Source: a virus
Lineage: Duplodnaviria > Heunggongvirae > Uroviricota > Caudoviricetes
Virus record (IMG/VR): IMGVR_UViG_2526164674_000023
Length of the DNA stretch: 8,722 nt
Direction: 5' to 3' (one strand)
Shown here one piece after another: positions 2,098-2,383 of the stretch (its first letter is position 1; each line of letters opens with the position of its first letter). A program made the translations under genes and the position numbers. A model generated the notes under the pieces. That model ran no database searches, had not been told where the DNA came from, and saw only the letters and a program-made list of their open reading frames with translations.

Positions 2098-2226
2098 TTA
2101 GTCGTTAGATTTTGCCGAACTGGAAAGCGCCTGTTTAAACTCACTGAAGCTGAGAGCTTCCTCGCCTTCGGCAAGGCCTTCGAAGTATTCTTCGTAAGCC
2201 TTTTCCATGATTGTGTCGAAATCCAT
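2098..2226 (-). CDS. small acidic protein (42 aa), not in the ORF track because below its size cutoff
   Basis: Hand translation of the minus strand: ATG at 2226..2224, 1 nt after the TGA of the upstream 51-aa ORF, with SD-like AGGTGA 5 nt upstream. Sequence MDFDTIMEKAYEEYFEGLAEGEEALSFSEFKQALSSSAKSND, stop TAA at 2100..2098, 11 nt before the next gene's SD and ATG. Tight operon packing supports it being real. Confidence 0.45.
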   Translation of the reverse strand: MDFDTIMEKAYEEYFEGLAEGEEALSFSEFKQALSSSAKSND

Positions 2227-2227
2227 A

Positions 2228-2383
2228 TCACTCACCTGAGTTTCTTTCCAGCCAGCGACGGGCACCATTTTCGGTTTTAAACGTTTTGCTTTTGGTATAC
2301 GTCATCGCGGTGAATGTACCGTCCTGGTTGGGAAACACGCCGTACACCAGAGATTCGTTGTTGCCAAGATCGATAGTATCCAT
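2228..2383 (-). CDS. hypothetical small protein (51 aa from ATG at 2383; ORF-track version starts at TTG 2422)
   Basis: ATG at 2383..2381 with GAGG 5 nt upstream (ggggaaatGAGGtcaacATG). Translation MDTIDLGNNESLVYGVFPNQDGTFTAMTYTKSKTFKTENGARRWLERNSGE. First ORF downstream of the O_L-like promoter region on the leftward transcript. Confidence 0.5.
   Translation of the reverse strand: MDTIDLGNNESLVYGVFPNQDGTFTAMTYTKSKTFKTENGARRWLERNSGE

Follow-up and report, generated by a model that had tools for sequence, protein, structure and literature searches.

The dicBF operon of Escherichia coli K-12 has been under study since the 1980s and is transcribed from the DicA-repressed promoter dicBp as a single RNA, in the order ydfA-ydfB-ydfC-dicF-dicB-ydfD (PMC5069750, PMC10448788). 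A second described system of related build is the immunity region of prophage CP-933P (paaR2-paaA2-parE2 / ydaS-ydaT / PL933P), whose authors noted open reading frames (ORFs) without assignable function downstream of the leftward promoter, PL (PMC8630535). Here, we analyzed a stretch of 8,722 nucleotides (nt) of viral DNA, IMG/VR record IMGVR_UViG_2526164674_000023 (in the following, the window), which constitutes the immunity region of a Qin/Rac-type lambdoid prophage of E. coli O157:H7. On its minus strand, two small ORFs of 51 and 42 amino acids (aa) follow a PL-like promoter, and their identity and operon context make it practically certain that they are ydfA and ydfB, the first cistrons of the prophage's dicBF operon. 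Both elements are already known; the outcome is the rediscovery of two named E. coli y-genes and no new element. The two genes are the following:

2228..2383, minus strand: ydfA, encoding a DUF1391 protein of 51 aa (51/51 identity to K-12 YdfA, PF07151, ratio of nonsynonymous to synonymous differences [pN/pS] of 0.19, AlphaFold2 model)
2098..2226, minus strand: ydfB, encoding an acidic protein of 42 aa with a core of residues 7-35 (41/42 identity to K-12 YdfB, PGAP, PHROG 2061, ratio of nonsynonymous to synonymous substitution rates [dN/dS])

The first ORF runs from an ATG at 2383 to a TGA stop at 2230-2228 and the second from an ATG at 2226, 1 nt after that stop, to a TAA at 2100-2098; the ATG of a third gene lies at 2086, 11 nt past the end of the 42-aa ORF. 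All three starts are preceded by Shine-Dalgarno (SD)-like motifs (GAGG and a spacing of 5 nt for ydfA, AGGTGA and 5 nt for ydfB, GGAG and 6 nt for the third gene). The 42-aa peptide contains 11 acidic (D/E) and 3 basic (K/R) residues, with a net charge of −8 and an isoelectric point of 4.05, and the net charge of YdfA is −1. The anatomy given in the original prediction, that is, a 51-aa ORF, a 1-nt gap, an acidic 42-aa ORF with its own SD, and an 11-nt gap, is therefore correct in its coordinates, SD motifs, and charge. Since the window contains 93 ORFs of at least 30 aa, ORF size by itself is no proof of a gene, and the case for genes is made by homology and selection.

The 51-aa product is identical to K-12 YdfA (b1571) at 51 of 51 residues and matches Pfam DUF1391 (PF07151) with 98.5 bits (cutoff, 27.3; E = 1.7e-28), residues 2-49 aligning to profile positions 1-48 of 48. 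The 42-aa product shares 41 of its 42 residues with K-12 YdfB (b1572). In line with these matches, the proteins fall into PHROG 751 (YdfA; E = 1e-36) and PHROG 2061 (YdfB; E = 3.5e-27). Many O157:H7 chromosomes contain the window with 100% identity, and the RefSeq/PGAP labels at the identical locus read "ydfA: DUF1391 family protein" and "ydfB: protein YdfB," the latter label being present in 25 of the 25 100%-identical O157 genomes among the matches listed. The homology search and structure prediction that had been suggested for both peptides thus led to YdfA/DUF1391, to YdfB/PHROG 2061, and to AlphaFold2 folds (see below). The 42-aa peptide had been regarded as unannotated and the genes as undescribed; neither holds, because PGAP names YdfB at the identical locus and both genes belong, as ydfA and ydfB, to the dicBF operon (PMC5069750, PMC10448788).

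DUF1391 genes carry the label "head-DNA stabilization protein D" in ON470583, ON470580, PV340562, and ON470614 (also L099 2192-2347). We consider the label a misannotation that probably stems from a stretch of 19 aa resembling the head decoration proteins gpD/SHP (PDB 1TD0/1TD3, E = 0.026).

The gene order after the promoter in the window is ydfA, ydfB, a variable third gene, DicF (a small RNA [sRNA]), and dicB. The downstream features that place the two genes in the operon are the following:

937..988, minus strand: DicF sRNA (Rfam RF00039, 76.9 bits versus a gathering score of 48, E = 4e-16)
563..751, minus strand: dicB, a cell division inhibitor gene (PGAP annotation of the identical locus)

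With DicF and dicB following on the minus strand, ydfA-ydfB is the promoter-proximal part of a dicBF operon. The DicB of the window has 55% aa identity to that of the K-12-like Qin locus L083, which encodes 100%-identical YdfA and YdfC, and a DUF1482 gene follows dicB (PGAP). Compared with Qin of K-12, the window has the same two proteins (51/51 and 41/42), the same 1-nt gap, and the same position behind a repressor-controlled promoter with DicF and dicB downstream. It differs in the repressor, which is a PaaR-type CI analog instead of DicA, in a PaaA-ParE pair inserted between the repressor gene and PL, and in the third gene, which is of a frameshifted 180-aa type and not ydfC. In the ydaG-ydaF pair of Rac, YdaF (DUF1391) is ~86% identical to YdfA (44/51) and occupies the same early-left position after a leader that is 87% identical, but an unrelated 44-aa YdaG stands upstream of the DUF1391 gene and YdfB is missing. 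The CP-933P immunity region has the same architecture as the window, with PL and its operators (OL) downstream of parE and with ParE2 as a close homolog; the window prophage resides beside yccA, and the likeness is one of architecture and of ParE.

The substitution patterns show that both genes encode real proteins under purifying selection. A 29-codon core of YdfB (residues 7-35) can be aligned across loci of Escherichia, Citrobacter, Enterobacter, Klebsiella, and Pectobacterium; here, synonymous differences (pS) amount to 0.8-1.0, i.e., they are saturated between genera, against pN values of 0.06-0.24, and dN/dS is 0.05-0.17 where dS can be estimated. Among 30 distinct alleles of ydfA, the mean pS is 0.195 and the mean pN 0.036 (pN/pS, 0.19). 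The YdfB family is small, with no more than 82 clusters at E ≤ 1e-3 among 1.84 billion representatives, nearly all of them peptides of less than ~100 aa, and is characterized by a defining motif, Y-E-E-Y-F-x-x-L-x-E-G-E-E-[AV]-[LM]-S-[FY]-x-E-[FY]-x-x-A-L. In alphaproteobacterial metagenome-assembled genomes (L095-L097), the N-terminal helices of GTP cyclohydrolase I are similar to YdfB, which we take as chance, no such protein being among the 82 library-wide matches.

The genomic neighborhood was counted in 80 viral contigs with a near-identical ydfB. ydfA lies directly before ydfB in 79 of them, and in 75 of the 79 adjacent pairs the gap is 1 nt. The flanks are variable: the repressor is of the DicA or the PaaR type, the toxin-antitoxin pair is present or absent, and either ydfC or the 180-aa type, or the two together, can follow as third gene. 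Prophages of Citrobacter, Enterobacter, and Klebsiella have a YdfB of 29-43 aa, without ydfA, as the first ORF ~200 nt after a CI-like repressor gene, and in Rac-type phages the DUF1391 gene is paired with the unrelated 44-aa YdaG upstream. Since YdfB occurs elsewhere without ydfA and DUF1391 with YdaG, the two genes are separable, and the three genes do not form a unit; of the three-gene module postulated before, only the tight ydfA-ydfB pair is left. YdaG itself, at 2358-2492 on the minus strand of L099, ahead of the DUF1391 gene, has the sequence MVHYEVVQYLMDCCGITYNQAVQALRSNDWDLWQAEVAIRSNKM and looks UBA-like by eye. A possible fusion of the two proteins (P0304), with a YdfB-like N terminus and a C-terminal "FKTEKEA" recalling YdfA, was rejected, as hhalign gave 1.4% and the context is unrelated.

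Further phage contigs contain series of tiny early genes that begin with a more distant YdfB-like peptide. One of them, P0303, matches the YdfB profile with an hhalign probability of 96.9% and ~50% identity over the 27-aa core. It is encoded in a T7-like contig (L110, 5001-5723), where its gene comes first after a boxA-like sequence and sigma-70 promoters; ocr follows directly, and a gene for a T7-type RNA polymerase is found further downstream. In the cultured Kosakonia phage Kc166A (Kayfunavirus; L112 1179-2021), a 42-aa homolog is encoded in class I at 1893-2021 of the record, between the genes of Ocr and RNA polymerase. Hence, YdfB-like peptides are encoded among the class I small proteins around ocr (gene 0.3) of T7-like phages, which, unlike the window prophage, are virulent and have no repressor control.

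The promoter from which the pair would be expressed is part of an immunity region made up of the following elements:

3167-3568, minus strand: CI-like helix-turn-helix repressor of the PaaR type (Pfam and PGAP)
2948-3139, minus strand: PaaA2-type antitoxin (Pfam and PGAP)
2661-2948, minus strand: ParE toxin (Pfam and PGAP; ParE2 of PDB 5CW7 at E = 3e-36)
2618..2642, minus strand: terminator-like hairpin (2642-2627) and T-run, TCCCTCTTTCGAGGGA followed by TTTTTTT, ending the upstream repressor/toxin-antitoxin operon
2565..2614, minus strand: PL-like promoter with OL-like operators, its hexamers lying inside an inverted repeat (2565-2585 / 2594-2614)
2384..2564, minus strand: untranslated leader of ~180 nt, C-rich at its 5′ end and containing a small hairpin, conserved across phages

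The prophage is integrated beside yccA, according to the annotation of the identical locus, and a divergent pair of YdaS (Cro-like) and YdaT (CII-like) completes the region (Pfam, PGAP). The PL-like promoter consists of a −35 hexamer, TTGACA (2595-2590), a spacer of 19 nt, and a −10 hexamer, TAGATT (2570-2565); a consensus promoter scan missed it because of the length of the spacer. The hexamers of the rightward promoter, PR, differ slightly (TTGATT, 18 nt, TAGGCT). The repeats at PL (inverted I1-I4, direct D4) share 17/17 and 17/18 nt with the PR region at 3605-3645. In CP-933P, PL933P with OL1-3 is repressed ~100-fold by PaaR2 and YdaS (PMC8630535). The putative repressor control of PL in the window is read from operator repeats in common with PR and from repression data on the homologous PL933P. 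Both the 17-18-nt repeats and the repression of PL933P (PMC8630535) bear out the promoter-proximal, early-left position behind an OL/PL-like promoter that had been proposed. Between the repressor gene and PL lies a three-component paaR-paaA-parE system (2661-3568, minus strand). This arrangement has been studied in CP-933P, and a homologous system is located on CP-933M (PMC8630535); the system of the window may well be that homolog.

The function of ydfA and ydfB is still a blank in the searchable literature, and therein lies the remaining value of the locus. In our model, ydfA-ydfB would be transcribed from the PL-equivalent promoter and kept in check by YdaS (Cro-like) and the PaaR-type, CI-like repressor, as homology and the common operators suggest. 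The products would then be expected only upon derepression of the prophage switch, and the 1-nt spacing and the internal SD motif point to translation as a coupled pair. Both may be nonlethal accessory early proteins that bind a host or phage macromolecule stoichiometrically at the onset of the lytic cycle, with the acidic face of YdfB turned to a basic, possibly nucleic-acid-binding, partner. A host nucleic-acid-binding protein is a plausible target of YdfB because of its first-early position, which it also takes beside ocr, and its acidic surface. Small early phage proteins have repeatedly proved to be specific inhibitors of host machinery. Taken together, from identity, operon, control, and coupling to selection and binding, we lean somewhat toward this model, whereas stoichiometric binding as the mechanism is tentative and a proposal of low confidence.

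Published experiments constrain what the proteins can do. When ydfABC and ydfD of K-12 were driven by Plac with dicF and dicB deleted, growth, viability, and morphology were those of the wild type (PMC5069750), and the lambda-vir resistance conferred by the K-12 operon was lost on deletion of dicB alone, with plating near that of the control (PMC6832061). Normal growth without dicF and dicB and the loss of resistance without dicB make toxic, host-killing, and lambda-exclusion roles unlikely. A lack of phenotype, which would count against the original prediction, was therefore found in part: K-12 ydfABC without dicB and dicF caused no toxicity and no exclusion of lambda-vir. Several points weigh against our model. 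Neither YdfA nor YdfB has a known partner, phenotype, or biochemical activity, and the searchable literature contains no direct evidence of translation from ribosome profiling or tagging. Furthermore, the data on toxicity and lambda-vir resistance refer to K-12, to single-copy Plac levels, and to few phenotypes (PMC5069750, PMC6832061), and the relatives in the T7-like contig and in Kc166A are recognized by a short motif, so that a common function is assumed.

The alternative that survives best is that YdfB is a small acidic mimic of DNA or another nucleic acid with an anti-restriction or anti-defense role, made first against a host DNA-binding defense or repair enzyme. The net charge of −8 over 42 aa, the position as first gene after PL in several genera, the homologs that neighbor the DNA mimic ocr in class I early regions of T7-like phages, and the strong purifying selection on YdfB are consistent with such a role. 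However, conservation is confined to a core of just 29 aa, in which aromatic or hydrophobic core positions make up most of the invariant residues. AlphaFold2 predicts a helix (3-17), a loop (18-26), and a second helix (27-39) with a predicted local distance difference test (pLDDT) score of 85, so that YdfB is probably an acidic helix-loop-helix module of ~29 aa. Neither Foldseek nor sequence searches matched YdfB to the known mimics Ocr, ArdA, Gam, and T7 gp5.9: Foldseek against the PDB gave no neighbor and nothing with an E value below 3.9, a PDB profile search gave nothing relevant to DNA mimics, and no Pfam match to ocr was obtained for either protein. PADLOC and anti-defense families were not matched either. 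On balance, we consider mimicry rather unlikely.

The helix, 9-residue loop, helix, and LSFxEF tail of YdfB also recall an EF-hand, and the C-terminal half gave a best EF-hand E value of 0.4. The EF-hand loop pattern (PS00018, PROSITE) is D-x-[DNS]-x-[DENSTG]-[DNQGHRK]-x-[LIVMC]-x-x-x-[DE]. With Leu at position 1, Glu at position 3 (where relatives have Pro), and Glu at position 6, the loop of YdfB departs from the pattern at three canonical positions, and we reject the assignment; the likeness is kept as a weak lead.

It is also imaginable that YdfA is a minimal DNA-binding regulator of the AP2/integrase-N type, acting in the switch or in recombination, with YdfB as its acidic modulator. YdfA is predicted to be a mini-domain of three strands plus a helix (AlphaFold2, pLDDT 77.5), and the predicted fold may resemble AP2, a domain in which a three-stranded sheet packs on a C-terminal helix. 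The model superposes also on phage HNH-associated domains, and ydfA and ydfB are adjacent in 79 of 80 E. coli loci. However, comparison of the YdfA profile with the AP2 domain of AtERF1 gave an hhalign probability of 6.6%, and Pfam AP2 was not matched at E values up to 10. We therefore do not claim AP2 membership, as the profile comparison is negative despite the apparent likeness in fold. A net charge of −1 and the occurrence of YdfB without YdfA in other genera and of DUF1391 with YdaG in Rac-type phages also speak against such a regulator, which we judge improbable.

A further alternative places the function in the RNA. The two ORFs could act mainly in cis, their translation shielding the early-left transcript from Rho polarity before dicF and dicB are reached, with the peptides being unimportant. 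This idea draws on the leader, which begins with the C-rich, G-poor ACACCAACCACCCACCCCGCCCCAC, on the tight packing of the genes with coupled starts, and on the absence of any reported phenotype for the YdfA and YdfB proteins. However, the amino acid sequence is kept while synonymous sites are saturated across genera, and the same peptide motif is found in unrelated phage backbones. This conservation at the level of the peptide contradicts a purely cis role, and we regard this explanation as very improbable.

The leader deserves a closer description. Over ~2394-2554, it is 87-97% identical in phages with a different first gene (Evi, 640R1, 666R9). A hairpin at 2416-2405 (CGCU/ACCC/GGCG) lies ~20 nt 5′ of the ydfA ATG, and its motif, GTTCCGCCACCCGGCGTTAAGGGG, recurs with apparent compensatory changes ahead of the leading early-left gene of prophages from Citrobacter, Enterobacter, and Klebsiella. 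A stable structured RNA was considered for the leader as a whole and rejected: the minimum free energy gave a z score of +0.82, i.e., no unusual stability, no Rfam family was matched, and only the small local hairpin is left. The predicted transcript from PL has the tract mentioned above (2530-2562, minus strand) at its 5′ end, and the tract resembles a Rho utilization site; C-rich, G-poor tracts are of the kind used by Rho, and the tract could bear on silencing of the operon. We also rejected an anti-sRNA like AgvB, which the CA-rich 5′ end might suggest, since AgvB genes are located at the PR′ moron site (PMC4104026). The phage vB_Apl-pPE4 (L101, PP818812), deposited as infecting Actinobacillus, has a Rac-like immunity region (DicA, YdaT, Kil, RecE) and a leader 76% identical to that of the window; its host assignment may merit checking.

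A module for host killing, of the toxin-antitoxin type, or for superinfection exclusion is most improbable: the lambdoid early-left region does hold Kil, SieB, DicB, and the like, and a ParE-type toxin-antitoxin pair adjoins in the window, but no PADLOC match was obtained, and the wild-type growth and morphology without dicF and dicB (PMC5069750) and the near-control lambda-vir plating on dicB deletion (PMC6832061) have already largely refuted it for growth and for lambda-vir. An N/nut antiterminator was rejected as well, given that no Pfam N family was matched, YdfB is acidic, YdfA has a charge of −1, and no boxA within 3 mismatches was found in the leader; the lack of likeness to lambda N had been seen correctly from the start. 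Hence, neither protein is likely to be an antiterminator, a toxin, or an exclusion factor as such. In sum, the observation behind the original prediction is confirmed, and its interpretation is partly supported.

Downstream of ydfB, the window differs from K-12 in the following gene:

1548..2086, minus strand: third gene, frameshifted and unrelated to K-12 ydfC (intact homologs of 177-186 aa)

Its homologs (~80% nt identity; L102 and L103) consist of one ORF each (186 and 177 aa), and its N-terminal ~70 aa form a domain that is common in the early-left regions of lambdoid phages. Compared with L102 and L103, the gene has a 1-nt deletion at an A7 run (1823-1817), which agrees with the frameshift already noticed. 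In the zero frame, the run reads aca-aaa-aaa-ttg; the frame that matches the homologs is −1, in which a homolog-like C terminus is regained, and a −1 slip on A_AAA_AAA would give a product of homolog length. The gene may thus be either a pseudogene or the carrier of a slippage-prone site. Between the third gene and dicF, a 61-aa gene on the opposite strand (1325-1510, plus strand; PGAP hypothetical) encodes a protein with CPAC...CPEH and a zinc-ribbon-like look. Between dicF and dicB (774-923, minus strand), a sub-threshold match to Rfam STnc100 was obtained (33.6 bits versus a gathering score of 47, E = 2e-4).

To return to the two promoter-proximal proteins, YdfB is a strongly constrained microprotein family and not an annotation artifact. 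The family is found consistently at the earliest-expressed end of phage genomes, temperate as well as virulent, a breadth that is newly noted here, and it offers a concrete and inexpensive experimental handle. We put forward, as a speculation that is more doubtful than not by far, that YdfB may define a widespread, overlooked family of acidic "first-early" phage peptides, helix-loop-helix modules of ~30 aa that neutralize a specific host nucleic-acid-binding protein. Such a family would, on the same doubtful footing, take in class I early genes next to ocr in T7-like phages as well as, in several genera of Enterobacterales, the gene that comes first behind PL in lambdoid prophages without N. 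Its putative target, no less speculative, could be a defense, repair, or silencing factor that is met at infection or induction. If this were true, YdfB would be among the smallest known counter-defense or takeover effectors.

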